Below, piece after piece: positions 22,482 through 39,510 of a DNA stretch of 64,000 nucleotides. The stretch is from contig JBIJDH010000001.1 of assembly GCA_044344255.1 (NCBI GenBank), forward strand, positions 32,001-96,000, read 5' to 3'. A program made the translations under genes and the position numbers. Positions within the stretch are counted from its first letter, which is position 1, and every line of letters starts with the position of its first letter. The notes under the pieces are model-generated. The model was not told the origin of the DNA. It made no database searches and saw nothing but the letters and a program-made list of their open reading frames with translations. Origin of the DNA: Myxococcota bacterium (GTDB lineage Bacteria > Myxococcota_A > UBA796 > UBA2385).

Positions 22482-25400
22482 TCAAACCGACCCGGCCGGG
22501 GCCCGGCGTCGCCGGAGCCCGATGGCCGCGACCAGGGCCAGCGCGGCGAGCCCACGGGCGCCGAGGGGCCCCGACGCCAGGGTGGGCACGGCGCTGCAGC
22601 CCCCCTTCAGCTCTTGAGAGGCGCGGTCGTCCAGCGCCTTCCAGGGGTTCGTCCCGTCCGCGACCTCCTCGCCGTCGGTTGCGCCGCCGCCGTCGGTGTC
22701 CGGGTCATTCGGATCGGTGCCCAGCGCCGCCTCCTCGAGGTCGGAGAGGCCGTCGCCGTCCGAGTCCAGGCCCACATCATCGCCGACGCCGTCACAGTCG
22801 TTGTCCTGACCATCCTCGAGCTCCGCCGCCCCCGGAAACACCGTGTCGTCCTGGTCATTGCAGTCGCCATCGGGATCGGTGGCCGAGCCCTCTCCCCCAT
22901 CGACACAGTCGAGGTCCGTCGACTCCACCGTGCCGGTCCCGTCGGCGCGATAACCGTCGCCGTCCTCATCGAGGAAGCAGACCTCACCCCCGTCGCAGTC
23001 CTGGTCTCGACCGTCGTCGACCACCTCGTCGGCGCCGGGGTGGACGTCGGGGTCGGAGTCATTACAGTCGCCGCGCGGCACGCCCGCGGCCGCCTCGTCG
23101 TCGTCGACACAGTCGGCGTCGAAGGAGGTGACAGTGGTATCGACCCGCCAGAGATCGCCGTCGCCGTCGCGATAACAGAGCTCGCCGCCGTCACAGTCCT
23201 GATCGATCTCGTCACCGACAAGCTCGGTGGCGCCGGGGTGGACATCGGCGTCGGCGTCGTCGCAGTCGCCGCCCTCGACGTCGGTTAGGGCCTCGCCAGG
23301 GTCGGTGCAGTCGCCGTCCGCCGAGGGGATGAAGGTGTCGTTGCGGTAGCCGTCTCCATCCGCCTCGCCGTAACAAGCCTCGCTGCCGTCACAGTCCTGA
23401 TCGATCCCATCCCCCACCACCTCGGTGGCGCCGGGGTGCACGGCGGGGTCCCCGTCATCGCAGTCGCCGTTCGAATCGGAGGCGCGGCCCTCTCCGCTGT
23501 CGCTACAGTCCTCGTCGAGGGAGGGGAGCGTGCTGTCCAGACGCCAGGAGTCATTGTCGAAGTCAACGTAACAGAGCTCGCCTCCGTCACAGTCCTCATC
23601 GATCTCGTCGCCCTCGATCTCGAGGGCCCCGGGATAGACCGCGCCGTCGGCGTCGTCACAGTCATCCGCGGGATCGGCAGAGAGGGCCTCGCCGGAGTCA
23701 CTGCAATCCGCATCGGTGGAGACCATCGTGGCCGAGACCCGGTAGCCGTCATCGTCGCCGTCCCGGTAACAGAGCTCGCCGCCGTCGCAGTCCTCATCGA
23801 CGGCGTCACCGGGGATCTCCACGGCGTAGGGGTGGACGGTGGCGTTGGTGTCGTCACAGTCGCCGGAGGGCTCGCTCCCCCGCGCCTCCCCCGAGTCGCT
23901 GCAGTCGCTGTCCGACGAGGAGACGGTCGAGGTGATCCGATAGCCGTCATCGTCGGCGTCGGCGTAGCAGGTCTCCTTGCCGTCGCAATTCTGGTCGAAG
24001 CCGTCGCCCGTGGTCTCGGTGGCGCCGGGGTTGACGGTGGCGTCGTTGTCGTCGCAGTCCCCGGAGGGGTCGGCGCTCGTGGCCTCGCCGGAGTCGGTGC
24101 AGTCCGTGTCGGTGGAGGTGCGCCAGGTCGAGACGCGGTAGCCGTCATTGTCGGCGTCGGTGTAACAGGTCTCCTTACCGTCACAATTCTGATCGACGCC
24201 GTCCCCCACCGTCTCGGTGGCGCCGCTGTAGATTGTGGCGTCGCTGTCATCACAGTCATCGCTGCCGCAGTAGCCGTCTCCGTCGGCGTCGGCGCAGCCG
24301 CTGAACACATAGACGGCGCCCGCGTTGCTGCTCACGCCATAGGCGCCCACCGCCACGTCGTCGTAGCCGTCTCCGTCGGCGTCGCCGAGGCCGTCGCACG
24401 ACGCGCCGAGGAAGCCCGAGCCGGAGATGGTGGTCATGTCGGCGCTGCTCAGGCCGGAGGCCGAGCCCGACAGGACGTAGGCCTCGTTCACCCCCGAAGA
24501 GCCGGCGATGATGTCGGCGTAGCCGTCCTGATCGACGTCTCCTGCGTCCCCGAGGCAGGTGCCGAGCTCGGTCGCCGAAGCGCCCGAGTAGCTCACCGCG
24601 GCTGCGCTCTGGATGCCGGCGCTGCTCCCATGGTACACCGCGAAGTAGCCGGCGTTCGCACCATAATCGGGAGCCGCGGCCAGGATGTCGTCGTAGCCGT
24701 CCCCGTTCACGTCGCCGGCCGGAGAGACCACCGCCCCGAAGTTGCTGGCCGCCTCCGGCGAGCTGAGGCGGACGGCCGCGGTGGTGCTGAGGCCCGAGGC
24801 GCTGCCGTGAAAGAGCGAGACCCGCCCCGCCTGCGCGCTGTAGTCGCCGTTGCCGACCACGAGGTCGTCGTAGCCGTCCCCGTTGACGTCACCGGCGCCC
24901 ATCGCCGCGCAGAGCGGGCCCGACGTGAGCGTGAAAGAGGCGTGCACCGAGGTGCTCACCCCGGTGGCGGTGCCGAGGTAGGCGCGCGCGTAGGCGCCCT
25001 GGCAGATCCCCAGCACCACGTCGCCGCGACCGTCGCCGTTGACGTCACCGGCGTGCCCGACCGAGTAGATCCAGGACGTGGCCGTCAGGGTGGTGGTGGC
25101 CGTCGTGGAGACGCCGCTGGCGCTCCCGAGATAGACATAGGCCGTATAGGGGCTGGCGTTGCTGGTGCCGACGATGACGTCGTCGTATCCGTCATTGTCG
25201 ACGTCTCCCGCCGTATCGACGGAGTAGCCGAACCAAGCCGCGGTGTGCGAGGCCGACAGGGTGGTGGCCGCCGAGGTGCCCACCCCGCTGGCGCTCCCAT
25301 GATAGACCCAGGCCCGACCGTTCTGGGAGCCGTACATGAACGACCCGACGATGAGGTCGCCGTAGCCGTCGTTGTTGACGTCACCTGCCCCCGCGAGTGA

Positions 25401-26291
25401 GATGCCGAGCCAGGCCCCGGCGCTGCCGCTGATGGTGGTGGTCGGGGAGCTGTAGAGGGGATCAACCTCAACCGGATAGACCGCGCCCGCGTCGTCGACC
25501 ACGACGCGCAGCGTGTCGCCCTCCGCCTCGAAGTGGATCGGCAAGGGCGCACCCCGGGCGTCCCAGGCGGAGAGGTCACCCACGTCGAGGAGGGCGCCCC
25601 CGGCGCCGAGCAGGCTCGCCCGCTGGCCGGCCTCTTCCAACTCAAAGGTCCCGCCAGGCGCCCGCGTGTCGAAGCGCAGCGGACCCGACCCCGCGGGGGG
25701 CTCTTCCACCGTCCAGCCCTGCTGGAGCCCGGTGTCGTGACCGCCCCACCAGGCGATGAGGCCGTCCTGCGCGTACTCGAGGCGGCGGACGCAGTCGCCC
25801 GACGGATCGAGGGCTGGGCCGAGGCAGGCCCCGAGGGCGGGCGTGGCGGCGGGCAGGGCGATCGCGCGGTCGAGCCGGCCCCAGGCGACGAGCTCGAGGT
25901 CGAGCGCCTCGTCGTCTACAGACAGCGTGGGCCCGCGCCCGCCGAAGCGCGCCGCCAGCCCCGCGGCGGGGAGGCTCACCCGGGCCACCCCATCCAACAC
26001 CTCGATGGCGCTCCGCCCCGCGCTCACCCGCTGGAGGAGCTCCGCCCGCCACACCGCAGCGCTGGAGGGGGCCTGGAGGGAGGCCGGCGCCGGGGCCCCT
26101 TCGCCGAGGTGCGCGGTGTCGTCGCCCTCTCCCGCCCCGCCTGGCGCCCCGCAGCCCGCGAGCAGCGAAGCGCCGACCCACAACAGCAGGCCGCCGGGCC
26201 TCACGCGCCCCTCCCCGGCGAGGCGACAACCGGCGGAGGCGCGCCGGGAGCGGGGCGGGAGGTCGGTCACCGGGCGTCCACTCGCGGTCAT
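22482..26291 (-). CDS. Large surface protein: N-domain, 7 FG-GAP (integrin-alpha-like) repeats, 8 DCDD..PGA.E..DG.D.DCDG Cys/Asp repeats, MYXO-CTERM-like anchor
   Basis: GGAGG RBS; lipobox-like LAGC; seven GDVxxDGxxD motifs; C-terminus KGGCS...LAALALVAAIGLRRRR. Confidence 0.92.
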   Translation of the reverse strand: MTASGRPVTDLPPRSRRASAGCRLAGEGRVRPGGLLLWVGASLLAGCGAPGGAGEGDDTAHLGEGAPAPASLQAPSSAAVWRAELLQRVSAGRSAIEVLDGVARVSLPAAGLAARFGGRGPTLSVDDEALDLELVAWGRLDRAIALPAATPALGACLGPALDPSGDCVRRLEYAQDGLIAWWGGHDTGLQQGWTVEEPPAGSGPLRFDTRAPGGTFELEEAGQRASLLGAGGALLDVGDLSAWDARGAPLPIHFEAEGDTLRVVVDDAGAVYPVEVDPLYSSPTTTISGSAGAWLGISLAGAGDVNNDGYGDLIVGSFMYGSQNGRAWVYHGSASGVGTSAATTLSASHTAAWFGYSVDTAGDVDNDGYDDVIVGTSNASPYTAYVYLGSASGVSTTATTTLTATSWIYSVGHAGDVNGDGRGDVVLGICQGAYARAYLGTATGVSTSVHASFTLTSGPLCAAMGAGDVNGDGYDDLVVGNGDYSAQAGRVSLFHGSASGLSTTAAVRLSSPEAASNFGAVVSPAGDVNGDGYDDILAAAPDYGANAGYFAVYHGSSAGIQSAAAVSYSGASATELGTCLGDAGDVDQDGYADIIAGSSGVNEAYVLSGSASGLSSADMTTISGSGFLGASCDGLGDADGDGYDDVAVGAYGVSSNAGAVYVFSGCADADGDGYCGSDDCDDSDATIYSGATETVGDGVDQNCDGKETCYTDADNDGYRVSTWRTSTDTDCTDSGEATSADPSGDCDDNDATVNPGATETTGDGFDQNCDGKETCYADADDDGYRITSTVSSSDSDCSDSGEARGSEPSGDCDDTNATVHPYAVEIPGDAVDEDCDGGELCYRDGDDDGYRVSATMVSTDADCSDSGEALSADPADDCDDADGAVYPGALEIEGDEIDEDCDGGELCYVDFDNDSWRLDSTLPSLDEDCSDSGEGRASDSNGDCDDGDPAVHPGATEVVGDGIDQDCDGSEACYGEADGDGYRNDTFIPSADGDCTDPGEALTDVEGGDCDDADADVHPGATELVGDEIDQDCDGGELCYRDGDGDLWRVDTTVTSFDADCVDDDEAAAGVPRGDCNDSDPDVHPGADEVVDDGRDQDCDGGEVCFLDEDGDGYRADGTGTVESTDLDCVDGGEGSATDPDGDCNDQDDTVFPGAAELEDGQDNDCDGVGDDVGLDSDGDGLSDLEEAALGTDPNDPDTDGGGATDGEEVADGTNPWKALDDRASQELKGGCSAVPTLASGPLGARGLAALALVAAIGLRRRRAPAGSV

Positions 26292-27254: not shown

Positions 27255-27287
27255 ACCCAGACACCGTCGTCCCCGGGAGAGGTGTCC

Positions 27288-28673
27288 ATGCCGCGCGCCC
27301 CCGATCCCGCCTGGGTCGCCACCACCCGCTTCGGCCTCGGGGCCCGCGGCGGCGAGCTCCGCGCCGCGCGGGCCGATCCCCGCGGCTGGCTGCTCGCCCA
27401 GCTCGACCAGAGCGCCGATGAGGCGGGCCTCAGCACCCTGTCCGGCACCCGCGATCTCCTCGTCCAGGTGGGGGATGTGCGACGCGAGGCTGACCCCGAC
27501 ACCGCGCGCCGCGAGGCCCGCCAGGCCGCGGCCGCCGTGCTCCAGGCCGAGGCCGAGGCCCGGATGCGGGTGGCCGGCACCACCACCACCCCCTTCCGCG
27601 AGCGCTGGCTGCGCTTCTGGTCGAACCACTTCACGGTCTCGGCGCAGCGGCTGCTGGTCACCGCCTTCTCCGGCGCCTTCGAGCGAGAGGCCATCCGCCC
27701 CGCCGTGCTCGGCGCCTTCTCCGAGCTCCTGCTCAGCGTCTGTCGGCACCCGGCGATGCTCGTCTACCTCGACAATTCGAGCTCGATCGGCCCTCACTCC
27801 GAGGCCGGCCTCCGGCGGGGCAAGGGGCTCAACGAGAACCTCGCCCGCGAGATCTTGGAGCTGCACACCCTCGGGGTCAACGGCGGCTACAGCCAGGCCG
27901 ACGTGATCGCGCTGGCGCAGATCCTCACCGGCTGGGGGGTCGTGCGCCGCCCCGACAAAGACCAGGGCCGGGTCGGGCCCTTCGTCTTCAACCGCGACCG
28001 CCACGAGCCGGGCACCAAGCGCCTGCTCGGCCGCGACTATGTCGAGCAGGGCGAGCTCGAGGGCCGGGCCGCCCTGCGAGACCTCGCCGCCCACCCGAGC
28101 ACCGCCCGCTTCATCGCCACCAAGCTCTGCCGGCACTTCGTCCATGACACGCCGCCCGAGGCCGCGGTCGCCACGCTGGAGCGCCGCTTCCTCGACACGG
28201 GGGGCGACCTCCGCGAGCTCGCGGTGGCCGTGGTCGGCCTGGAGGCGGCCTGGACCCGCGGCGGCAGCAAGGTCAAGACCCCCGACGAGCTCTTGATCTC
28301 CACCGCGCGCGCGCTCCAGCTCGGCGGCGGCGAGACGGGGTCGAGCGGCCGCTGGGGCGAGCGCGACTGGGCCGCCACGGCGGTGACCGAGTGCGCCGCC
28401 CTCGGGCAAGCCGCCTTCCAGGCCCCCTCCCCCGCCGGCTGGTCCGAGCTCGCCCGCGACTGGGCCGGGCCGGGGCAGGTGCTCCGCCGGGTCGAGCTGG
28501 CCGAGGCCGTCGGTCGGCAGGCCCGGGCGCGGGTCACCGACCCCCTGAGGTGGGCGGGCGAGGTGCTGGGCGCCGAGCTCGAGGGCCCCCTCACCGAGGC
28601 CGTCCGCGGCGCCCCCGACACCGCCGCCGCCATCACCTACGTCCTCGCCAGCCCTGCCTTCCAGCGGAGGTGA
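27288..28673 (+). CDS. DUF1800-family protein
   Basis: RFGLG, ERWLRFWSNHFTVS, HPAMLVYLDN, GLNENLAREILELHTLG, HPSTARFIATKL, SPAFQRR. Confidence 0.95.
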   Translation: MPRAPDPAWVATTRFGLGARGGELRAARADPRGWLLAQLDQSADEAGLSTLSGTRDLLVQVGDVRREADPDTARREARQAAAAVLQAEAEARMRVAGTTTTPFRERWLRFWSNHFTVSAQRLLVTAFSGAFEREAIRPAVLGAFSELLLSVCRHPAMLVYLDNSSSIGPHSEAGLRRGKGLNENLAREILELHTLGVNGGYSQADVIALAQILTGWGVVRRPDKDQGRVGPFVFNRDRHEPGTKRLLGRDYVEQGELEGRAALRDLAAHPSTARFIATKLCRHFVHDTPPEAAVATLERRFLDTGGDLRELAVAVVGLEAAWTRGGSKVKTPDELLISTARALQLGGGETGSSGRWGERDWAATAVTECAALGQAAFQAPSPAGWSELARDWAGPGQVLRRVELAEAVGRQARARVTDPLRWAGEVLGAELEGPLTEAVRGAPDTAAAITYVLASPAFQRR

Positions 28674-28676
28674 CCC

Positions 28677-29957
28677 CTGCTCGATCGACGCCGCCTGCTC
28701 ACCGGGATGCTCCACGGTGCCGCGCTGCTCGGCGGCGCCTCCCTGCTCGGGCTGCCCGCCCTCCACCCGGGCCGCCTCGCCTTCGCCGCCGGGGCGGGGG
28801 ATCGCCGCCTGCTCGTGCTGATCAACCGAGGGGCGATGGACGGGCTCGGCGCCGTGCCCGCCCACGGTGACCCGGCCTATCGGAGCGCGCGGGGGGCGAT
28901 GGCGCTGGACCCGGTCGGCGGCGGCCCCGGCGGGGTGCTCGATCTCGACGGCCACTTCGGCCTCCACCCCGCGCTCGCCCCCCTCCACCCGTGGTGGGCC
29001 AGCCGCGAGCTCGGCCTCGTCCACGCCGTCGCCCTCCCCTGCCGCACCCGCTCGCACTTCGACGCCCAGGACGCCCTTGAGGGCGGCGCCGCCACCCCGC
29101 ACGGCGCGCCCGACGGCTGGCTCAACCGGGCGCTGGGCCGAATGAAGCCCCGCGGCGCCACGCCCACCGCGATCGGCCCGAGCCTCCCCCTGCTCCTCCA
29201 GGGGCCCGCCGCCGCCACCTCGGTGGACCTCGCCCACGACACGGAGCTGTCCGACGACCTCCTCGACGTGATCGCCGCGCTGTACGCGGGTGACCCGCTG
29301 CTCGGCCCCGCCCTCCAGGAGGGGCGGGGGAGCATGCCGGTAGCGCAAGAGCGGATGCAGGAGGAGCCGGCGACGATGGGCGGAGGGGGACTTCGGCGGC
29401 GCCAGGCCTCCCTCCGCTCGGTGGCCACCGCCGCGGGGGCCCTGCTCGGCCGCGCCGACGGCCCGAGGGTCGCCGTGCTCGAGACCGGGGGCTGGGACAC
29501 CCACAGCGGCCAGGGCACCACCGTCGGGCGCCTCGCCCGCCAGCTCAGCGGCCTCGCGGGGGGCCTCGAGGCCCTCAAGGCCGGCATGGGGGCGGCCTGG
29601 TCCGACACCATCGTCGTCATCGTCTCGGAGTTCGGGCGCACCGTCGCCGGAAACGGCACCGGCGGCACCGATCACGGGACCGGCGGCGTCGTGATGCTCT
29701 GCGGCGGTGCCGTGGCCGGCGGGGTCGTGCGCGGGGAGTGGCCGGGCCTCTCCCCCGACCGCCAGTTCGAAGGACGCGACCTCCTGCCCACCACCGACCT
29801 CCGCGCGGTCTGGAAGGGCGTGCTGCGCGACCACCTCGGCCTCGACGAGGCGGCGCTGGCCGAGGTCGTCTTCCCGGACAGCGCCGCGGTGCAGCCGATG
29901 GAGGGTCTCTGTCGGGACGGCGCGCTCAGTCGGCCAGCTCCGCCTCGATCACCGTGA
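28677..29957 (+). CDS. DUF1501-family protein with twin-arginine signal (probable CTG start)
   Basis: RGAMDGL, FGLHP, RSHFDAQ, GGWDTH, SEFGRT, GTDHG, TTDLR. The frame extends upstream of ATG 28707 to (L)LDRRRLL, preceded by GGAGG. Confidence 0.93.
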   Translation: MLDRRRLLTGMLHGAALLGGASLLGLPALHPGRLAFAAGAGDRRLLVLINRGAMDGLGAVPAHGDPAYRSARGAMALDPVGGGPGGVLDLDGHFGLHPALAPLHPWWASRELGLVHAVALPCRTRSHFDAQDALEGGAATPHGAPDGWLNRALGRMKPRGATPTAIGPSLPLLLQGPAAATSVDLAHDTELSDDLLDVIAALYAGDPLLGPALQEGRGSMPVAQERMQEEPATMGGGGLRRRQASLRSVATAAGALLGRADGPRVAVLETGGWDTHSGQGTTVGRLARQLSGLAGGLEALKAGMGAAWSDTIVVIVSEFGRTVAGNGTGGTDHGTGGVVMLCGGAVAGGVVRGEWPGLSPDRQFEGRDLLPTTDLRAVWKGVLRDHLGLDEAALAEVVFPDSAAVQPMEGLCRDGALSRPAPPRSP

Positions 29958-31824
29958 CCATCTCTTCAAGCTCGAACGCGTTGTTCGCATAGACGACGAC
30001 CCCGTCCGTGCCGATGATCCAGTCTTGCGGATAGGCGGCCGACGGAAAGGCCATGAGCTGGTTGTAGACCTCCGAGACCTCGCCGTCCGCATCGACGAGG
30101 ATCGGGAAGCTCAGCCCATACGCGTCGCGGAAACGCTCGAGCGCGTCCACGGGCTCATGGCTCGCGATCCCCCAGACCACCACGCCCTGCTCTTGATACC
30201 GCTGCCACACGCTCAGCTCGATGTCCGAGACCTCGGACGGACAGGCTGGTCACCAGGTAGCGAAGTAGACCAGCACCACCGGCACCCCGGCCTGGAGGGA
30301 GAGCTGGTGGACCTCGCCGTCGAGGTCGGGGAGCGCGAAGTCGGGCGCGACCTCTCCCAAGGCCACACCCACCCCCCGCTCCTCGGCGACGACCGCGATC
30401 TCGCGCTGGGGGTCGTCGGGATCGTCCGTGTTGAGCCGAACCGAGGCGGACACGGGCTCCCCCGCGGAGAGGGTGAGGCGGAGGTGACCCTCCCCGCCCG
30501 GCGGCACGGTCTCGGCGGTGGACTCGACGGTCAGGCGCTCGCTGCTCGGGCAGACCCCGCGCAGCGACAGCGCCGCGCCGCCGAGGTTGGCGAACGCGAT
30601 CTCCACCGAGCCCCCCTCCGGAGAGAGGTGCAGCGTGTCGGCGCCCAGGCGGAGGTCGGGGCCGGAGCGGCCGAGCGCGGCCTCCTGCACCTCGAGCCAC
30701 CCCCAGGCCGCCACCACCGCGCGGTCACCCTCCGCGGCGAGCCCCATCGCCCACTGATCGGTCCCCTCCGTGCCGATGGGGGTTGGGAGGAGGGGGTCCG
30801 CGAGGTCGAAGGCGACCGTGCCCTGGAGGTCGGCCACCCAGAGGAGCTCCGCGGTGGCCCCCAAGCCGACCGCGCTGCCAAGGATGGACAGGGCGCCCTG
30901 GCTGTCCGGGGCGTCCGGGTCTGACAGGTCAAAGACCTCGACCCCCGCCCCGCCCTCGGCGGCGTAGAGCGCGCCGCCGTCTGCCGACAGGGCGAGGTCC
31001 ATCACCGCCCCAGCGGTGGGGAGCGTGGTGAGCACGGAGAGGCCGCCCGCCGAGCTGTCGAGGACCGAGAGGCCGGCGGCCCCACCCGCGACGTAGATCC
31101 GATCGCCCCAAGCAACCAGCTCCCAGATGTTGCCGAGCCCCGCTACGCTCCCCGCCTCGACGGCGCGGCCCTCGGCGTCCACCTCGAGCCGCAGCACCCG
31201 CCCGTCCAGCCCTCCGACGAAGAGGCTGTCCCCCACGGCGGCCATCCCGGACAGGCCGGGCTCGAGCCGCAGGGGTGAAGTGCGGAGCGCCGCAGGGTCA
31301 CGCGCGTCGATGCGCCACAGACCGCGGTCGCGGTGGGTCGCATAGACCACGGCGTCCGGGCCCCCCGCCTCGAGGTGATAGTAGCGGCCCTGGGCCTCCA
31401 CCGCGTCGTCGTATCCGATCAGGGCCGGGGCCTCGGGCACGGAGAGGTCCACGACAAAGAGGCCCCCCTGTCCGACCAGATAGGCCACCTGCCCGTCCGG
31501 GGAGAGCTCCACCTCCAGGACCTCGGCCAGCACATCCTCTTGAAGGAAGAGGGAGCCGACCGGCCACAGCGGATCGCGCGCGGGGTCCGGCGCCGACTCG
31601 GCCGAACAGTCCGTCGGCAGGGGAACCCACTCGGCCGCCGGCGCGCCGGTGTCGGGGGCGTCGGCCTCGTCGGCCGGCCCATGCCCCTTCCCGCCGCCAG
31701 GGCGGTCGTGGCCGCAGCCGACGAGCGAAGCGCCGAACACGAGCGCCGACAGGCCGGGGGCCGCGCCAGAGCCAGCGGGAGCACAACGGCGAGAGAGAGC
31801 ACGAGTGCGTGGGCGGGAGGTCAT
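29926..31824 (-). CDS. Selenoprotein: lipoprotein with LVIVD-like beta-propeller, Ig-like domain and TlpA/peroxiredoxin-like redoxin domain (UxxC; Sec525 at TGA 30250-30252)
   Basis: ORFs 30250-31824 and 29926-30210 are one frame: APDFALPDLDG...PVVLVYFATW-TGA-PACPSE...GLSFPILVD...YPQDWIIGTDGVV. SECIS-like hairpin downstream; AGGAG RBS; lipobox LVGC. Confidence 0.92.
30223..30238 (-). promoter_or_regulatory. Bacterial SECIS element
   Basis: mRNA reads UGA CCAGCCUGUCC GUCCGAGGUCUCGGAC: 11-nt spacer, stem GUCCGA/UCGGAC, apex AGGUCU as in the E. coli fdhF SECIS. Confidence 0.88.
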
Positions 31825-31946
31825 CCGGTCTCCTGACCGCCCATAGCCGAGCCGGCGGCGTCGGCAAGGGAGCCGCCGGACACGGCCGGCCCAGCGACGG
31901 CGCCCCCCCCGCGGCGCAGGCGGGGGAGCCGCGATAGCAGCCGAGC

Positions 31947-32810
31947 ATGCCGACGCTCAGCCCCCTCCTCCTCTCCCACCTGCTCCTCGTCCGCTCCGCC
32001 GCGGCCGGGCCCGCCCCCACCGCGGCGCCGGTCGAGGCGGTTCGTTTCGACGACGACCCGTGCATCGTCGGGGAGACCGTCTACGTCGTCACGCCGAGCG
32101 CCAATTTTCGCGCGGGGCCGATGAAGGAGGCCGCCGCCTTGAAGGCGCTCCCCCTCGGCGCGCCCCTGAAGGTGCTCACGAAGCACGCGGCCACCGAGGT
32201 CGACGGTCGCTCCGGCGCCTGGTGCGGCCTGCGAGACGCGGACGGCGCGGTGGGCGCGATGTTTAGCCCCACCCTGTCCGCTCACCGCTGGCAGGCGGAT
32301 CTGGACGAGGATGGTCAATCGGACTCGATCTTCGTCTCCTACAACAGCCAGCGTCACCTCCTCGTCCAGGTCCGCTCCCCCGCCGGCCTCACCGGCCTCC
32401 TCGACCTTGGGGAGCAGATGGACATGGGCGGGCCGCTCGACGTGGCCGAGGTCGCCATCGCCACAGGGACGGGCGTTCCCCTGCTGCGGGTCTACGTGCC
32501 GGGCAGCGAGCAATGCGGCGGCTACTCGAAGGAGTACTACGTGTCGTGGCGGCGGGGTCCGGACGGCCAGCGGGCCGCGCGGCTCGCGCTGTCGGGGGCC
32601 ACCGGCGGCGACGCCCCCGTCTACTCTTCCACCGAGTTCACCTTTCATCCGAAGAAGCGGCAGGTTAGCTCTGTACAGACCTTCGGAGAGGCCCTCGAGA
32701 GCGGAGAGACCGCCGAGGACATCACCACCACCACCCTCCGGTGGGATGGCGTGGCCTATCAGGAGGTCTCCAAGGTGGAGACCCACAAGGGACCGCCCCG
32801 CTCGGAGTGA
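31947..32810 (+). CDS. Secreted SH3b-like domain protein
   Basis: Signal peptide; VYVVTPSANFRAGP...LPLGAPLKV...W (bacterial SH3-like); then DLDEDGQSD and a CG motif. Confidence 0.75.
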   Translation: MPTLSPLLLSHLLLVRSAAAGPAPTAAPVEAVRFDDDPCIVGETVYVVTPSANFRAGPMKEAAALKALPLGAPLKVLTKHAATEVDGRSGAWCGLRDADGAVGAMFSPTLSAHRWQADLDEDGQSDSIFVSYNSQRHLLVQVRSPAGLTGLLDLGEQMDMGGPLDVAEVAIATGTGVPLLRVYVPGSEQCGGYSKEYYVSWRRGPDGQRAARLALSGATGGDAPVYSSTEFTFHPKKRQVSSVQTFGEALESGETAEDITTTTLRWDGVAYQEVSKVETHKGPPRSE

Positions 32811-35800
32811 CCGTCGCCCGCCGCCGCGCCGGCCGTCAAAACCGACCCGCACCGGCGACGGCGACCCTGGAGGCCGAGGAGGGCAAGGAGGCCGAGGAGA
32901 GCGGTCGGCCGGGAGCCCGAGCTGCTGCAGCCGCCTTTGCCGCCGCCAGAGCCACCACCGTCATCCTCCTCGGTGATCCCATCGGTGCCGTCTGTTCCAT
33001 TGGTGCCATCGGCTCCGTCTGCGCCATCCGCCCCGTCCGTGCCATCATCGGCGGAGCCGCAATCGACGACTTCGGGGTCGGTGTCATCGCAGTCGTCGCC
33101 GCCGTAGTCGGCCGAAGTGTGCCCGTCGTGGTCGGCGTCGAAGTCGTCATAGGTGCCGCAGTCGCTGTTCTGGCCATCATAGGGCTCGTCGGGGGCCCCG
33201 GTGTAGACAGTCTCATCTGTATCGTCGCAGTCCCCGCCGCCATGTACGGCGCTGTCCTGTCCGTCTCCGTCGGCGTCCCAGTCGGAGCCCTCGTCACAGG
33301 CCTGGTCTACCCCGTCGTACCATTGCTCCGGGGCGCCGGGGAAGCTGTTCTCATCGTGGTCATCACAGTCCCCGGGCTCTGTGACCTCATCGTCGCCGAG
33401 GGCGCAGACCTCGTGGCTGCTGTCGGTGTCGCCCCAGCCGTCTCCATCCGCGTCATCATAAGCGGTGACCGTGGAGAGGCCGTCATCCGTGACTTCGTCG
33501 CAGTCCTCATCTACGCTATCGCAGGTCTCGGTGGCTTCGGGAGAGATGCTGCCATCGCTGTCGTCGCAGTCATCCCCGAGGGCGACGGTGCCCGCGGGGG
33601 CCTGACAGGCTTTGGAGGAGACTGCGGGGTCGCCATGGCCGTCGCTGTCGCTGTCGGCATACCAGGTGCCGGCATCGGTGGGGGTGCCTTCGTCGATGAG
33701 GCTGTCGCAGTCGTCATCGGCGCTGTTACAGGACTCCGTGGAGCCCGGGGACCGCGAGCCGGTGCTGTCGTCGCAGTCGGTGGAGCTGGCGGCATAGCCG
33801 GAGGGCAGGGAGCAGGCCCGGGTGGTGCCGGCGACCGAGCCATAACCGTCCCCGTCGGCGTCGACATACCAGGTGGGGGCGTCACTCGCGTCGGCCTCAT
33901 CGGTGCTGCCGTCGCAGTCGTCGTCGACCGTATTACATTTCTCTGTAGCGGCCGGAGAGACGGCCGAGGAGCTGTCGGCGCAGTCTGTCCCCGTAGACAC
34001 ATAGCCTGTGGGCAGGCTACAGGCGGAGGTTGTGACCACGGGGTCGCCGTAGCCGTCTCCATCGCTGTCGGCATACCAGGTGGAGCCGCCCGAGGCGCCG
34101 GCCTCGTCGATGCTGCCGTCGCAGTCATCGTCGGTGCTGTTGCAGGTCTCAGTGGCACCGGGGCTCACCGCCGTGCTGCTGTCATTACAGTCGCTGGAGG
34201 TGGCGGTATAGCCGGTGGGCGCGCTGCAGGAGACCGTGGTGGGGCTGCTGCCGCCATATCCGTCGCCGTCGGCGTCCCGGTACCAGGTGGGGGCGTCCAT
34301 GGCGTCGGCCTCGTCGATGCTGCTGTCGCAGTCGTCATCATCGCCGTCGCAGGTCTCGCTCGCACCTGGGTGCTCGGCGCTGTCACCGTCGTCGCAGTCG
34401 GTGGAGAGCGTGGAATATCCAGTCGGGAGGCTGCAGGTCTTTGTCGAGCTCGTGGCGGTGCCGTAGCCGTCCCCGTCCGCATCGGCATAATAGGTGGTGC
34501 CGGTCGTGCCGCTCTCATCGATGGCGCCGTCGCAATCATTGTCGACGCCGTCGCACTCCTCCGTGGCGCCGGGGTGAATGGTGTCGTCGGAGGGGGCGCA
34601 GTCGGCGGAGTCGGCGGAGCCGTCGCCGTCGGTGTCCGTGTCGTAGCCCGTATAGAGCGTACAGTCGTAGGAGCCACAGGCGCCTACATCGTCGAAGCCG
34701 TCCCCGTTGATGTCGCCTGGACCGTTGACGGAGTCCCCGAGGTACCGGTAGCCGAGGGCCGAAACTCCGGCGATCGTGGTGCTCGCGGTAGAGGACAGGC
34801 CGCTCGCCGAGCCCTCCAGGATCCAGATGGCCCCGTCATTGCTGGAGAAGGCCGCATCGCCGACCACCAGATCATCATACCCATCTCCGCTGACGTCACC
34901 GGCCAGGGCGAGCGCGGCGAAGCTGGAGAGGCCCCCAGACACACCTGTGATGACCGTACCCGGGCTGCTGGACAGGCCGGTCGAGCCCGCGGAGTAATAG
35001 ATATAGAGGCGGCCGAGGTTGCTGTCGTAGCCATAGGCCCCGACGGCGAGATCGTCGTAGCCGTCGCCATTGGCGTCCAGCACCGCGATGGAATAGCCGA
35101 AATAGCTCCCAGTGGCCTCTCCAGAGAGCCCGAGGCGGAGGGTGCTGCCCATGCCCGAGGCGCTCCCGTGATAGACCGAGACGCTCCCCGTGCTGCTGGA
35201 GGCGGCGCTCCCGCCCACCGCGAGGTCGGAGTATCCGTCCCCGTTCAGATCCCCCGAGGCGAGGGAACCGCCGAAGTCGATGCCGGTCGACGACGCGCTG
35301 AGGGTGGTGGCCCCCGTGGAGCTGAGCCCGGTCGCGGCGCCATAAAAGACATAGACCCTCTCGTTGCTGCTCCCGCCGGGGGCGCCAGCCGCCACGTCGC
35401 CGTATCCGTCTCCATTTACATCCGACAGACCGAGCAGCGCCAGTCCGAGGTAGGTGGTCCCAGAGCCCGTGTAGCTCCAGGCGCTGCTGCTCTCGAGACC
35501 AGCTGCGCTCCCATGATAGACGAGCAGCCCTCCCTTGTTGCTGGAATCCGAGGGGGTGCCCACTACGACGTCGGCATAACCGTCGCTGTTGATGTCGGTG
35601 CCGCTCACCGCGTGGGCGAAGCCGCTGAGGGTCGCCGGCCCGCTGAGGGTCGACTCCGGATAGTCCGGGAGGCCACTCGTGGCGCCATGGAACAGGTGGA
35701 CATAACCCGGCTGATTCGAGCTCACCTCCGACGAACAGAGGGCGAGATCATCGAAACCATCCCCATTTATGTCGCCGACCCGGGCCACGGTGGGGGATGC

Positions 35801-37732
35801 CAGATAAGCGTCAGGGTTGTCAATCGTATCCGCGGTGGAGGATAGGCCGGTCGAGGTCACTCCCGCATGGAAGAAGATATCCCCCTGAGGAGCGTCGCCA
35901 TAGTAGGGGGCGCCAACCAGGAGGTCATCCACCTCATCCCCATTCTGATCGGCCCGGTTCGACAGGGAGTAGCCGAGGTATCGACCGGTCGTGGAGCCCC
36001 GGATGCTGAGGCTACGGGTGGAAGCCGCGCCGCTGCTGCTCCCCTTATAGACCACCACCTCCCCGGTTGAGGCGGAGTATCCGTAGGCGCCGATGGTGAC
36101 ATCGTCGTAACCATCGGCATCCCAGTCTCCGAGGGAGAGGGCGGAGCCGAAATAGTTGCTCGTAGAGTAGCCCACCCAGGAGGCGCTGGCGGTCGTGGAG
36201 GGGCCACTCGCGCCGCCGAGGTACAGATAGACCTTACCCGTGTTGGTACTGAGGGTGGGGTCGCTGATGAGGAGGTCGGCATACCCATCCCCGTTCACGT
36301 CTCCCCCGCCAGCGAGGCCCGCCCCGAAGGTGGCTGAGCCGGACTGGGTGAAGCTGCTGGTCGCGGAGGCTCCGATCCCGGCGCTGCTGCCGAGGTAGAG
36401 GCTCACGGTGTCGGATGTGGAGCTGGTGACGAGGACATCGTCGTAACCATCTCCGTTCACATCCCCCGCGGCCCCGACCAAATAGCCGAGCTTGGGGGAG
36501 CCGGTCCCGCCCGAGACGGTTCGGGCGGGGCTGCTTGACAGGCCCGAGGCAGAGCCGTGATAGACAAAGAGCTTGCCCTTGCTGGAGGAGGCCCCATAGG
36601 CGCCGATCAGCACGTCGTCATAGCCGTCGCCATCCACATCCCCAGCCCCCGCCAGCGCGGCCCCGAAATAATCGCCCGCGGCGGAGCCCGACAGACTCAA
36701 GTCCGACGTGGCGTCCGTCCCACTCGAAGCGCCGAGGTAGAGATCGACCTGGCCATAGAGGCTCCCCGTCGTGCGGGAGCTGATGAGCACGTCGTCATAA
36801 CCATCCCCATCTACATCCCCCGCCGCCGCCACATGGAGCCCGAAATAGGAGCTGAGGTCGTCACCCTGGAACACGGTGTCTGGCTTCTGCGAAAATCCAG
36901 TCGGGCCCCCGAGGTAGAGGTAGGCGCGGCCAGTGTAGCCGCCTTTCTCGTAGCCGCCGGCCAGGGCGTCGTCGTAACCGTCTCCGTTAACATCTCCCGC
37001 GCTGACGACCGTTCTGCCGAAGGCGGAGTCTCCCGCGAGGGTGGACCACGTGGCCGAGGTGTAGATGGGGTCGATCTCGATTGGATATTCTGCCCCGGCA
37101 TCGTTGATGGAGAGGAGGAAGCCCTGTCCGTCGGGGAAGGCTTCGATCGGAAGGGCACGTTCATCCGCATCCCAGGCTGCGAAGCCACCGATGGACAGGG
37201 CCTCCCCGGCGGCGTCGGTGACAGACAGGTGCATGGGGCCTCCCGTGACGGCGGTGGCCCCCTCCAGCCCCACATGCAGCTCGAGCACACCCTCGCCGGC
37301 CGGAGCCTCATCGAGGGTCCAGCGCTGCTGCAGGCCAATACCGAGCGTCTCCCAGCGCTCAACGAGGCCGGGCCGGTGAAGCTCGGCGCTGGGAGCACAG
37401 GGGAGGGAGTCGAGCTCGCAGCCCCGGAGCACCGGCCGCGAGGGAGGATCGAGCTCGAACAGGCGGCCCCCTCGACCCAGACTGCGGGTCTCCACCTGGA
37501 GGCGAGGGAGGGTCTCTCCGGGGGCGCGCAGGGCAAGTCCGCGGGGGTCGAGGGAGACCCGGAGGGGGCCGAGCGACGCGAGGAGGGTGCCGTCCCCGTG
37601 CCGGGTGAAGCCCGTTCCGCTGGGTTCCGGGCTCAACCCTCTCGCCGCGAGGCCGCTGGCTGTGTCGCGGGCGCCCTCAGGGCCCGTGCAGGAGATCAGG
37701 ACGAGCAGGACGGAAGGGGTCAAGGGGCGCAT
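32759..37732 (-). CDS. Large surface protein (1657 aa): N-domain, 14 FG-GAP repeats, about 8 Cys/Asp repeats, GxD linker, MYXO-CTERM-like anchor
   Basis: Start at MRPLTPSVLLVLISC (the upstream in-frame part is the antisense of the HAD gene); 14 DxxxDGxxD-type motifs; WYxDxDGDGYG repeats; KGGCS...LLGLLALLGLQGRRRR. Confidence 0.92.
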   Translation of the reverse strand: MRPLTPSVLLVLISCTGPEGARDTASGLAARGLSPEPSGTGFTRHGDGTLLASLGPLRVSLDPRGLALRAPGETLPRLQVETRSLGRGGRLFELDPPSRPVLRGCELDSLPCAPSAELHRPGLVERWETLGIGLQQRWTLDEAPAGEGVLELHVGLEGATAVTGGPMHLSVTDAAGEALSIGGFAAWDADERALPIEAFPDGQGFLLSINDAGAEYPIEIDPIYTSATWSTLAGDSAFGRTVVSAGDVNGDGYDDALAGGYEKGGYTGRAYLYLGGPTGFSQKPDTVFQGDDLSSYFGLHVAAAGDVDGDGYDDVLISSRTTGSLYGQVDLYLGASSGTDATSDLSLSGSAAGDYFGAALAGAGDVDGDGYDDVLIGAYGASSSKGKLFVYHGSASGLSSSPARTVSGGTGSPKLGYLVGAAGDVNGDGYDDVLVTSSTSDTVSLYLGSSAGIGASATSSFTQSGSATFGAGLAGGGDVNGDGYADLLISDPTLSTNTGKVYLYLGGASGPSTTASASWVGYSTSNYFGSALSLGDWDADGYDDVTIGAYGYSASTGEVVVYKGSSSGAASTRSLSIRGSTTGRYLGYSLSNRADQNGDEVDDLLVGAPYYGDAPQGDIFFHAGVTSTGLSSTADTIDNPDAYLASPTVARVGDINGDGFDDLALCSSEVSSNQPGYVHLFHGATSGLPDYPESTLSGPATLSGFAHAVSGTDINSDGYADVVVGTPSDSSNKGGLLVYHGSAAGLESSSAWSYTGSGTTYLGLALLGLSDVNGDGYGDVAAGAPGGSSNERVYVFYGAATGLSSTGATTLSASSTGIDFGGSLASGDLNGDGYSDLAVGGSAASSSTGSVSVYHGSASGMGSTLRLGLSGEATGSYFGYSIAVLDANGDGYDDLAVGAYGYDSNLGRLYIYYSAGSTGLSSSPGTVITGVSGGLSSFAALALAGDVSGDGYDDLVVGDAAFSSNDGAIWILEGSASGLSSTASTTIAGVSALGYRYLGDSVNGPGDINGDGFDDVGACGSYDCTLYTGYDTDTDGDGSADSADCAPSDDTIHPGATEECDGVDNDCDGAIDESGTTGTTYYADADGDGYGTATSSTKTCSLPTGYSTLSTDCDDGDSAEHPGASETCDGDDDDCDSSIDEADAMDAPTWYRDADGDGYGGSSPTTVSCSAPTGYTATSSDCNDSSTAVSPGATETCNSTDDDCDGSIDEAGASGGSTWYADSDGDGYGDPVVTTSACSLPTGYVSTGTDCADSSSAVSPAATEKCNTVDDDCDGSTDEADASDAPTWYVDADGDGYGSVAGTTRACSLPSGYAASSTDCDDSTGSRSPGSTESCNSADDDCDSLIDEGTPTDAGTWYADSDSDGHGDPAVSSKACQAPAGTVALGDDCDDSDGSISPEATETCDSVDEDCDEVTDDGLSTVTAYDDADGDGWGDTDSSHEVCALGDDEVTEPGDCDDHDENSFPGAPEQWYDGVDQACDEGSDWDADGDGQDSAVHGGGDCDDTDETVYTGAPDEPYDGQNSDCGTYDDFDADHDGHTSADYGGDDCDDTDPEVVDCGSADDGTDGADGADGADGTNGTDGTDGITEEDDGGGSGGGKGGCSSSGSRPTALLGLLALLGLQGRRRRCGSVLTAGAAAGDGHSERGGPLWVSTLETS

Positions 37733-38020
37733 TCGGGGCTCCGAATAGACAAGGTAGCACAGACCCTGGCTGGGGGGCTGATCCTCATCCGCGAGCAGTG
37801 GAGCAGCCCCGAAATGGTAAAACCAACCAATAAACAGGAGAGGATGTCCGCATGCCCCGCAAGGTCTACACCCCCGAGTGCCGGTCTCACCGGATCTCGC
37901 TCGTCCAGGCGAGCCGAACGCTGGAGTCGCTGGCAAACGAGCTCGATCCGTCCGCGGCGGGTCGCTCGACGTGGCCGAGGCCGCGATGCCGAGCCGATCC
38001 GGAGCGGATAGGCCCCCGTG

Positions 38021-38752
38021 ATGCGCGCCCTCCGCCCCGTCGTCCTCGACCTCGACCAGACCCTCATCCGCGCCGAGGTGCTCGACTGGGCCCTCTGGCT
38101 CGACGCGATGGCCGAGGCCTTCGGCCAGCCCGTCCCCCTCGACCAGGACTGGGGCGCCTACCCCGTCCACACCGACCACGGGCTGCTCGAGAGCCTGTCC
38201 CAGCAGCTCCGGGGCCGGCCCTTCGAGGACCACGAGCGGGCCCGCTTCGAGGCCGACCTCTTCTCCCGCATTGACGCCGCCCTCGCGGCCGACCCCGGCG
38301 TCTTCGTGCCCATCTCCGGGGCGGGGGCCCTCCTCGCCGCGCTCCAGGGGCGGTCCTGCCTCGCCACCGGCAACCTCCACCCGGTGACCCTGCGCAAGCT
38401 CCGCTCCTCCGGCCTCGACCGCTGGCCCCTCCCCTGCTCCTGCTCCGGCCCCGGCATCGACCGCGCCGAGCTCGTCCGGCGCGCCCTCCTCCGCGTCGGA
38501 TGGGCGCCAGGGGCCGCGGCCACCTCCTTCGGCGACGGCGTCTGGGACGTGCGCGCCGCCCGCGCCTTGGGCATCGGCTTCGTAGGGGTCGCCCAGTCCG
38601 ACCGCCACGAGGCGCGGCTCCGCGCCGCCGGCGCCGCCCACGTCATCCGCGACTACGACGACCTCGACGCCGTGCTGCAGCTCACCCAGGAGGCCCCCCT
38701 CCCCGGCCCCGAGTCTGCGACCGCCTGGAAGGCGCCGCAGGCCGCCGAGTGA
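38021..38752 (+). CDS. HAD-superfamily hydrolase
   Basis: VLDLDQTL (motif I), ATGN (motif II), FGDGVWDV (motif IV). Confidence 0.92.
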   Translation: MRALRPVVLDLDQTLIRAEVLDWALWLDAMAEAFGQPVPLDQDWGAYPVHTDHGLLESLSQQLRGRPFEDHERARFEADLFSRIDAALAADPGVFVPISGAGALLAALQGRSCLATGNLHPVTLRKLRSSGLDRWPLPCSCSGPGIDRAELVRRALLRVGWAPGAAATSFGDGVWDVRAARALGIGFVGVAQSDRHEARLRAAGAAHVIRDYDDLDAVLQLTQEAPLPGPESATAWKAPQAAE

Positions 38753-39510
38753 GCGCACTCGCCGAGCCGGGCGCCGCCGATCTCGTCACCCTCGAGGTCG
38801 AGCGCCTGCGCGGCCTCCTCCGGGCTGGTCGTGACCCTGACGTCGCCGCCGGACAGACCGCTTATCTCAAGGGCCTCGTCCGCTTCTATGGCTGGAAGGG
38901 CCCCCGGGTGGTGGCGCTCTCCCGCGCCGAGCAAGCGGCGACAAAGGGCTGGGCGCCGGCTGAGCGGATAGACCTCGGCCTCCGCCTCCTCGACTCCGAG
39001 TGGGGAGAGGAGCAGCAGCTCGGCCTCCTGATCCTCTATCGGCACCGCCAGTCCGCCCCGACAGACCTCACCCTCCGCCTCGAGCCCATCTTCGACCGCC
39101 GCGCCACCAACTGGGCCACCTGCGACGCTATCTGCGGCCGCGTGCTCCGCCACCGCCTCCCGCAGGCCGCCGACCGCGCGCGCCTCCTCCGCTGGAGCGA
39201 GTCTGCCAACACCTGGCGCCGCCGCGCGGCCTGCGTCGCCTACGTCAACGAAGCCCGCAAGGGGCTCTACGCCGAGGAGATCCGCCTCGTCGTCCCCCAG
39301 GCCCTGGCCATCGACGAGCGCTTCGTCCAGCTCGGCGCCGGCTGGCTGCTCCGCGAGCGCTGGCTGGCCGCCCCCGACGAGGTGGTGGCCTTCCTCCGCG
39401 CGCAGGGCGGCGAGATGCGGCGGGAGGCGCTGCGCTACGCGATCGAGAAGATGCCGCCGGAGCAGCGAGAGGCGCTGCTCCGGGAGACTGGCCCGGCCCG
39501 CCGCGGCTGA
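38749..39510 (+). CDS. DNA alkylation repair protein (AlkD-like)
   Basis: NWATCD, WSES.NTWRRRA, FVQLGAGWLLRE, REALRYAIEK; GTG overlaps the HAD stop (GTGA). Confidence 0.9.
   Translation: MSALAEPGAADLVTLEVERLRGLLRAGRDPDVAAGQTAYLKGLVRFYGWKGPRVVALSRAEQAATKGWAPAERIDLGLRLLDSEWGEEQQLGLLILYRHRQSAPTDLTLRLEPIFDRRATNWATCDAICGRVLRHRLPQAADRARLLRWSESANTWRRRAACVAYVNEARKGLYAEEIRLVVPQALAIDERFVQLGAGWLLRERWLAAPDEVVAFLRAQGGEMRREALRYAIEKMPPEQREALLRETGPARRG

Follow-up and report, generated by a model that had tools for sequence, protein, structure and literature searches.

Extracytoplasmic thiol reductases of the CcmG/ResA group are marked by a proline inside the CxxC motif and a glutamate three residues after its second cysteine, and they carry a small aliphatic residue before the cis-proline (PMC5909903). 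Redoxins in which selenocysteine (Sec, U) occupies a UxxC motif are an already catalogued kind of selenoprotein; Table 1 of PMC13188914 (119 families) lists such proteins with PF00578, PF08534 and cd02966. Exported lipoprotein selenoproteins (SaoX and SaoC; bioRxiv 2022.07.06.499078) and other thioredoxin (Trx)-fold selenoprotein fusions, reported from ocean data (PMC2398784), have also been described. A TlpA-like domain, a propeller and a β-sandwich share one chain in NHLRC2 and SOQ1: in NHLRC2 the propeller cup faces the Trx motif (PMC6107167), and SOQ1, the domains of which are lumenal, is reported as a disulfide and methionine-sulfoxide reductase (bioRxiv 2024.11.01.621559). Here we analyse a gene in a 64,000-nucleotide stretch of a Myxococcota genome (assembly GCA_044344255.1, contig JBIJDH010000001.1, positions 32,001 to 96,000; hereafter the window). 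It almost certainly encodes, as a single gene and not two, one exported 632-residue selenoprotein that joins a lipoprotein signal peptide, an LVIVD-type propeller, an immunoglobulin (Ig)-like domain and a UxxC redoxin.

The upstream open reading frame (ORF; 31824-30250, minus strand) is 524 codons long and ends in ...YFATW followed by TGA. Past this codon, which takes the first position of a U-P-A-C redoxin motif, the same frame gives PACPSEVS...FPILVD...YPQDWIIG, 107 residues, before the true stop TGA at 29926-29928, as stated in an earlier reading of the sequence alone (the original prediction), which had the frame running on from FATW-TGA to 29926. Databases store the gene as a 524-residue and a 94-residue piece, the split that was expected of standard annotation. 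The original prediction proposed three checks, namely a Sec machinery in the genome, TGA or Cys at the aligned position in homologues and the same TGA in other assemblies, and all three came out in its favour. As to the last, the TGA is present in contigs of two runs: record 3 of X13 covers 29900-30883 with no differing letter, and record 1 of X10, which is possibly the source of this DNA, covers the entire gene with no listed difference at the codon. Contigs carrying this DNA come from lake, river and freshwater metagenomes. RNA over the gene amounted to one 239-base contig (30410-30648) from one metatranscriptome, with the UGA outside it, which was too weak and was not used.

The genome (8.18 Mb, 71% GC, 95% complete) contains selA (481 bits), selB (268) and selD (260), each over its cut-off in a profile search, together with a tRNA-Sec with a UCA anticodon; within the order, 59 of 61 genomes have a selA match above the cut-off. 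The selD gene encodes an Ndh-SelD fusion with a Cys CxxC site (L004:235-2583 (+), G000:C52), a form described for aquatic bacteria in the available part of PMC2398784. Two further predicted Sec genes were observed in the genome. One encodes a second Sec lipoprotein, a stand-alone redoxin with THAT-U-GHC (L303:1446-2162 (-), G000:C26) that scores 199.5 bits against a cut-off of 100 on the TUGYCR (seleno)protein model NF053656. The other is a candidate with RHYG-U-TFC and a hairpin (L304:1288-1917 (+), G000:C51), which scores 108.5 bits, just under the cut-off of 120, on the SelL-related redox protein model NF040769.

A search of 60 relatives with the whole protein gave full-length matches by the dozen, almost all of which contain a single TGA, and by our reading of the match table a family member is found in 45 of the 60. 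From the top of the match list 80 loci were taken, including the present gene and three full-length matches without a stop; at the column of residue 525, 78 of 81 family ORFs from the order carry TGA and three carry TGT or TGC (Cys). Phylum-wide, 31 of 301 sampled genomes match at E <= 1e-20 and all 50 listed matches, a list that overlaps that from the order relatives, contain one TGA; a further 20 of 20 family ORFs from the phylum search have TGA at the column and an identical domain order. TGA was likewise present at 80 of 80 GTDB loci, a biased count, with the search pattern lying in the peptide coded by the selenocysteine insertion sequence (SECIS) and the loci overlapping earlier ones. 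Among the best 150 profile hits in a 50%-identity protein library, 55 single-stretch matches were chosen, the remainder being multi-repeat LVIVD/Ig giants. Just before the Sec position 45 of the 55 stop, 40 of them in FATW; the other ten are full length, eight with Cys at the column and two without the motif. Downstream pieces are stored as separate proteins of 71-108 residues, some labelled 'peroxiredoxin'. In an unrooted FastTree tree of 151 rows, the ten Cys rows among 149 scored need five changes, from which we take Sec to be the normal state and the returns to Cys to be sporadic. Myxococcota is the commonest taxon in the ESM Atlas cluster nearest to the protein. At three loci (L076, L105 and L121) two family genes lie in tandem, both copies containing a TGA of their own, and at three others (L067, L094 and L025) frameshifts or a stretch of N close to the end represent assembly errors or decay.

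The hairpin that had been proposed 11 nt after the UGA lies at the expected place, with a 6-bp stem and a 4-nt loop. The likeness to the E. coli fdhF element claimed with it stands in part: the 11-nt spacer, the AGGUCU apex and the GGUC loop are shared and the energies are similar (-14.2 kcal/mol for fdhF and -14.6 kcal/mol here), whereas the apex is at +17, one base closer to the UGA than in fdhF (+18), and the stem lacks the bulged U found in fdhF. With its GGUC 4-nt loop, 6 bp, 17 nt and -14.6 kcal/mol the element lies within all four bacterial SECIS (bSECIS) constraints (loop of 3-9 nt with G in its first two nucleotides, stem of 4-16 bp, 16-37 nt from the UGA, minimum free energy <= -7.5; PMC13188914, Fig. 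2 legend).

What lifts this hairpin above chance is its conservation in homologues. Of the 54 SEVS-type genes, 51 have the 6-bp Watson-Crick stem in full, whereas synonymous shuffling with each gene's own codon usage predicts about 3.1 of 6 pairs. Two-sided changes occur at stem pairs 15-30 (GC48/CG3/AU2) and 18-27 (CG43/GC8/UA1/UG1) of these genes; 14 such changes were counted in the stem, from related sequences that are not independent. In 53 of the 54, GTC encodes the Val of the loop (background 46%). In the L-E-x-P subfamily (24 genes) the stem is shifted by one base and has 7 bp, complete in 20. A third register was also seen, and the subfamilies other than that of the present gene have a shifted stem with GGU, GUU or similar loops. 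The second and third registers, built from different codons, would be hard to get without selection on RNA structure. The three Cys genes retain 3-4 of 6 pairs, which is the chance level. A pooled count over all 78 SECIS rows (78% paired) mixes two registers, and the split count, in which L072 was assigned to the wrong register, is preferred. Judged from these alignments, synonymous codon choice and compensatory changes maintain the hairpin, and the Cys forms have lost it.

These comparisons bear directly on the alternative that the TGA is a true stop, a pseudogene lesion or an assembly error, leaving two genes or a dead one. The separate database pieces could be taken that way, as could a hairpin that is not significant alone. 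However, this codon recurs at one and the same catalytic column in the order, in the phylum and in a second clade (see below), full-length Cys homologues exist, the covarying hairpin disappears where Cys returns, other assemblies carry the TGA and a stop here would, in the AlphaFold model, cut the thioredoxin fold inside its active site; we regard this alternative as extremely improbable. Decoding of UGA 525 as Sec, by SelB reading the hairpin within the ORF, is predicted with a confidence close to certainty. Three points weigh against it: the 63-nt stretch folds no better than its shuffles (z of +0.75); the hairpin by itself is weak evidence in a genome of 71% GC (the 37-nt stretch gives a z of -1.85, with 9 of 200 shuffles equally stable, and 365 of 162,072 genomic TGA triplets pass a hairpin-plus-coding filter); and P0057 and P0102 are full-length homologues without both redox residues, possibly non-catalytic members of the family.

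Features of the gene are collected in Table 1. The membrane-anchored, extracytoplasmic location suggested from the outset fits the lipobox motif, the Cys of which is found, by a heuristic, in 59 of 79 family ORFs having a start; the protein is very probably lipidated at Cys37 and held outside the cytoplasm on a flexible linker. This linker is poorly conserved and variable in length among homologues, and in two Myxococcota members (L204 and L205) it is replaced by about 500-750 residues of Dicty_CTDC-like Cys-rich repeats between lipobox and propeller.

Table 1. Features of the selenoprotein gene (window coordinates)
Feature	Position	Strand	Basis
AGGAG, Shine-Dalgarno-like, 5 nt upstream of ATG	31830..31834	-	direct sequence reading
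Full coding sequence, predicted Sec at residue 525	29926..31824	-	frame; 78/81 family ORFs with TGA at column
Predicted lipoprotein signal peptide, residues 1-37, lipobox L-V-G-C37	31714..31824	-	sequence motif
Low-complexity Gly/Pro/Asp linker, residues 38-72	31609..31713	-	sequence
Seven-bladed LVIVD-type β-propeller, residues ~84-382	30679..31575	-	AlphaFold strands
Ig-like domain (HYDIN/ASH/choice-of-anchor D type), residues ~389-480	30385..30660	-	model and profiles
TlpA/ResA-like redoxin, residues 486-632	29929..30369	-	profiles and model
In-frame TGA, predicted selenocysteine 525	30250..30252	-	frame, homologue column, other assemblies
SECIS upper stem-loop GUCCGA-GGUC-UCGGAC; loop start 18 nt after UGA	30223..30238	-	fold and conservation
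Extended SECIS with lower stem, -14.6 kcal/mol	30213..30249	-	fold

The order of lipoprotein signal, LVIVD-like propeller, Ig and redoxin given in the original prediction holds by profile search and in an AlphaFold model of residues 61-632 (39 sequences; predicted local distance difference test, pLDDT, 93.6; predicted template modelling score, pTM, 0.93). In the model, a seven-bladed propeller, which an N-terminal strand closes, is followed by an Ig sandwich and then by a redoxin of the TlpA type; a pTM of 0.93 over three domains implies that their predicted arrangement is fixed. The propeller superimposes on propellers of the WD40 type (for WDR61, VIA Z of 32.9, root-mean-square deviation, r.m.s.d., of 2.0 over 277 aligned residues); its LVIVD profile score is below cut-off in the present protein (16.4 against 20.2) and above it in homologues. 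Structure-wide searches were dominated by generic propellers and named no function. The redoxin is over cut-off for PF00578 (83.7 bits, cut-off 26) and PF08534 (60.8 bits, cut-off 26.6), with ResA as its nearest solved relative (E of 1.5e-13), and contains W524-U525-P-A-C528-x-x-E531 and, after an insertion of about seven residues, Y598-P599 at the cis-proline position. Across 140 distinct sequences P526, C528, E531 and P599 are 97-99% conserved. A Cys in the N-terminal arm and one in the Ig domain are both present in 90 of these sequences, one alone in 16 and neither in 34, a distribution that makes a structural disulfide between arm and Ig domain probable.

The redoxin module agrees with the catalogued UxxC selenoproteins in its Pfam domains over cut-off, in Sec as the first residue of UxxC and in a bSECIS within the ORF; the difference is that it forms the C-terminal quarter of a lipoprotein with an LVIVD propeller and an Ig domain. 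The original prediction did not recognize this architecture among characterized selenoproteins, and our comparisons bear that out within their scope. The propeller fusion is absent from the descriptions in Table 1 of PMC13188914 as available to us, where a representative could still be a member, and the main text of that paper contains neither the word 'propeller' nor the word 'lipoprotein'. In NCBIfam (June 2026) no model is over cut-off for the present protein, though another Sec redoxin in the genome is recognized. The available main text of PMC2398784 mentions no propeller or LVIVD, and a term search of the deep-Sep main text, as available, gave no match. No literature with both 'selenoprotein' and 'LVIVD' was found in a search that left subscription journals mostly outside, and no paper on the family was found, although the supplements of PMC12013277 and PMC2398784 could hold members. 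Within the literature searched, then, the propeller-Ig-Sec redoxin architecture was not found in print.

As to function, we somewhat favour, at a little better than even chances, a reductase of the ResA/CcmG/TlpA type in which the propeller cup binds the substrate. The assignment to the reductases is made because of the proline in the motif, the glutamate at +3 (E531, in 136 of the 140 sequences) and a DsbD-like gene in the genome. In such a reaction, the U525 selenolate would attack an oxidized substrate sulfur, most likely in a disulfide, C528 would resolve the mixed selenenylsulfide and DsbD would reduce the U-C bond again, either itself or by way of a small Cys redoxin. The substrate would bind in a cup formed by the propeller's conserved top face (E101, R147, R165 and W374), and the Ig domain would keep this cup close to the active site; in NHLRC2/SOQ1 the propeller cup likewise faces the Trx motif. 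The paralogue expansion (nine matches in one genome, G049) suggests several substrates. The DsbD-like gene itself has a 1004-codon frame (L305:477-3488 (+), G000:C36), is unlinked to the selenoprotein gene and encodes two N-terminal β domains, each with a CxxxxC-type pair.

Face assignments in the propeller were made from the strand list of the model. F99, E101, Q119, R147, R165, W234 and W374 map to the top face (conservation 1.00 for W374, 0.82 for R147, 0.81 for E101 and 0.77 for R165), so that family-specific conservation of polar and aromatic residues lies in the loops of this face; the bottom face retains only repeat Asp residues. Coupling analysis of the 140 sequences gave the within-domain pairs E101-R147 and Q119-R147, while the pairs linking different domains (L333-A527 and E101-A597, for example) were scattered and noisy. 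When the redoxin was folded alone, the inserted loop had a pLDDT of 81, compared with 89-94 in the full model (the blocks compared are offset by five residues), and the active-site block shifted in the opposite direction.

Several observations weigh against a cup-bearing reductase of this type. Mean conservation is similar on the two propeller faces (0.43 and 0.40), D247 and D373 are ordinary LVIVD repeat positions and the present gene has lost both of these consensus Asp residues (G247 and A373). The residue before the cis-proline is Tyr or Phe in 137 of 140 sequences (Tyr in 105, Phe in 32) and not the small aliphatic residue of CcmG/ResA; the ResA model scores 67.9, far below its cut-off of 170; and no conserved operon was found among the Myxococcota loci examined. 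NHLRC2 was inactive in an insulin reduction assay, according to the available part of PMC6107167, and if the protein were on the cell surface, a location suggested by the secretion tails of a second clade (see below), an inner-membrane DsbD could not reach it directly.

The kinship to ResA also raises the alternative that the protein serves the maturation of cytochrome c or copper sites, as a genuine CcmG/ResA/TlpA carrying one more domain. With ResA, CcmG (DsbE), TlpA and StoA the present redoxin shares the fold, an extracytoplasmic membrane anchor, the Pro in CxxC, the Glu at CxxC+3 and the cis-proline position, and both the nearest solved relative and the conserved Glu speak for such a role. 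It differs from them in having Sec for the attacking Cys, Tyr/Phe before the cis-proline, the inserted loop and the fused propeller and Ig domains, in its many paralogues per genome and in lacking a maturation operon: no ccm/ccs/sco gene cluster recurs among 111 loci. None of 12 listed NCBIfam families, the ResA, DsbE, TlpA and StoA models included, was over cut-off, and relatives carry tails of the type IX secretion system (T9SS) type; we regard a maturation factor as quite improbable.

An envelope or surface peroxidase or repair enzyme, acting on peroxides or on oxidized Cys or Met in the manner of SOQ1 with a propeller that only positions the redoxin, is also unlikely, if less so. In its favour are the membership of the redoxin domain in AhpC-TSA, lake and river bacteria as hosts, the reported methionine sulfoxide reductase activity of SOQ1 (in the part of bioRxiv 2024.11.01.621559 available) and the only sporadic replacement of Sec by Cys in the tree. 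On the other hand, the peroxiredoxin motif PxxxTxxC/U is absent, the motif being YFATW-U-PAC (W-U-P-x-C), and the PrxQ and BCP models are far below cut-off (38.9 against 260 and 32.1 against 140). The Ig domain, unlike the C-terminal domain of SOQ1, has no conserved Cys pair of its own, and its lone Cys is absent in 41 of 140 sequences. NHLRC2 and SOQ1, as described in the available parts of their sources, resemble the present protein in combining a TlpA-like domain, a propeller and a β-sandwich in one chain and in conserved propeller-cup residues; they differ in that the order here (propeller-Ig-redoxin) is the reverse, the propeller has seven LVIVD instead of six NHL blades and the motif is UPxC instead of CCINC. 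The SOQ1 chain does not superimpose as a whole (r.m.s.d. of 22). NHLRC2/SOQ1 is an analogue and not an orthologue.

A second clade extends the family beyond lipoproteins. A weak match, P0010, led to 97 close proteins among 120 listed, 87 of which end in W, mostly in FANW; a lipobox pattern occurs in only three of the related proteins, the clade having a plain signal peptide. Atlas clusters of second-clade length are commonest in Fidelibacterota, with few members having taxa. From 80 metagenome loci we examined the 16 with a match reaching the last query residue, and all 16 continue with TGA, U-P-x-C and a hairpin. Twelve of these belong to the second clade (L222-L235), nine rows of which form one side of a tree branch with support of 99. 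The 11 that are not cut by a contig end all have a C-terminal tail, encoded downstream of the UGA; in four of six tails (L224, L227, L233 and L235) the T9SS type A sorting domain TIGR04183 is over cut-off, in L222 it is below cut-off and in L226 there is no match. In the present protein profile scans found no such sorting domain, the redoxin being the C-terminus. The tails and the Cys-rich stalks of relatives hint at exposure beyond the outer membrane; the present gene has neither.

We tentatively entertain, as a minority possibility, a cell-surface selenoenzyme with a composite active site, which two lineages would deliver by unrelated routes: Myxococcota with a long stalk and a lipid anchor, and an FCB-like (Fibrobacterota-Chlorobiota-Bacteroidota-like) clade with a T9SS tail. 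Propeller cup and Sec would then make up a single active site that arose in convergence with SOQ1/NHLRC2, its outside substrates being, for example, prey or particle proteins with disulfide bonds. Because the tag lies downstream of the UGA, export in the tailed clade may be selenium-gated, with only the selenium-loaded enzyme leaving the cell. A small Cys redoxin gene adjoins the family gene in eight of 111 loci (six of the second clade and two of Myxococcota), which speaks for the relay in the favoured reductase model; against that model, the other 103, many of them on short contigs, show no adjacent Cys redoxin.

A surface location would equally suit a disulfide isomerase or oxidase serving the many Cys-rich surface proteins of the host, since isomerization needs no net electrons. 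The genome has at least 150 MopE-type Cys repeats, family members L204 and L205 have Cys-rich stalks, the second clade has T9SS-type tails and the cis-proline loop is atypical. Repeat candidates, however, have a median of 445 in genomes of the order without a family match (n = 15) and 557 in those with one (n = 45; p = 0.34, kin not being independent), a reductase is indicated by the Glu at CxxC+3 and by the Pro in the motif, and neither Thr nor Val precedes the cis-proline. We consider this role improbable, to the same degree as a peroxidase or repair enzyme, and retain the extracytoplasmic disulfide reductase as the preferred assignment.

In the window, a DUF1800 and DUF1501 gene pair (27282-29957, plus strand) converges on the selenoprotein gene and overlaps its 3' end by about 30 bases; it is not a recurring neighbour among the loci examined. 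Directly upstream of the selenoprotein gene and on its strand, a 287-residue ORF (31947-32810, minus strand) matches no Pfam family. FG-GAP and MopE-type Cys repeats occur in two large proteins of exported type, encoded at 22482-26291 and 32759-38758, both on the minus strand. A dedicated foldase for MopE-type repeats was considered as a candidate and rejected, the repeat load not being linked to family presence. No promoter- or terminator-like sites were found within 29700-33000, an Rfam search gave nothing meaningful and no relatives of the selenoprotein gene were found in the viral contigs searched.

The gene described here belongs to a selenoprotein family that is large and present in multiple copies, with 140 distinct sequences aligned and about 90 truncated database proteins of the second clade in addition. 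Gene callers break its members at the active site, and counts of Sec use in freshwater and marine Myxococcota are too low as a result. The family is a clean natural set for SECIS covariation, in three registers, and as a bacterial analogue it bears on the chemistry of proteins that combine Trx and propeller, such as NHLRC2. If the surface location is true, it would raise the questions of what such a redox selenoenzyme acts on and by what means it could be recharged outside the outer membrane.

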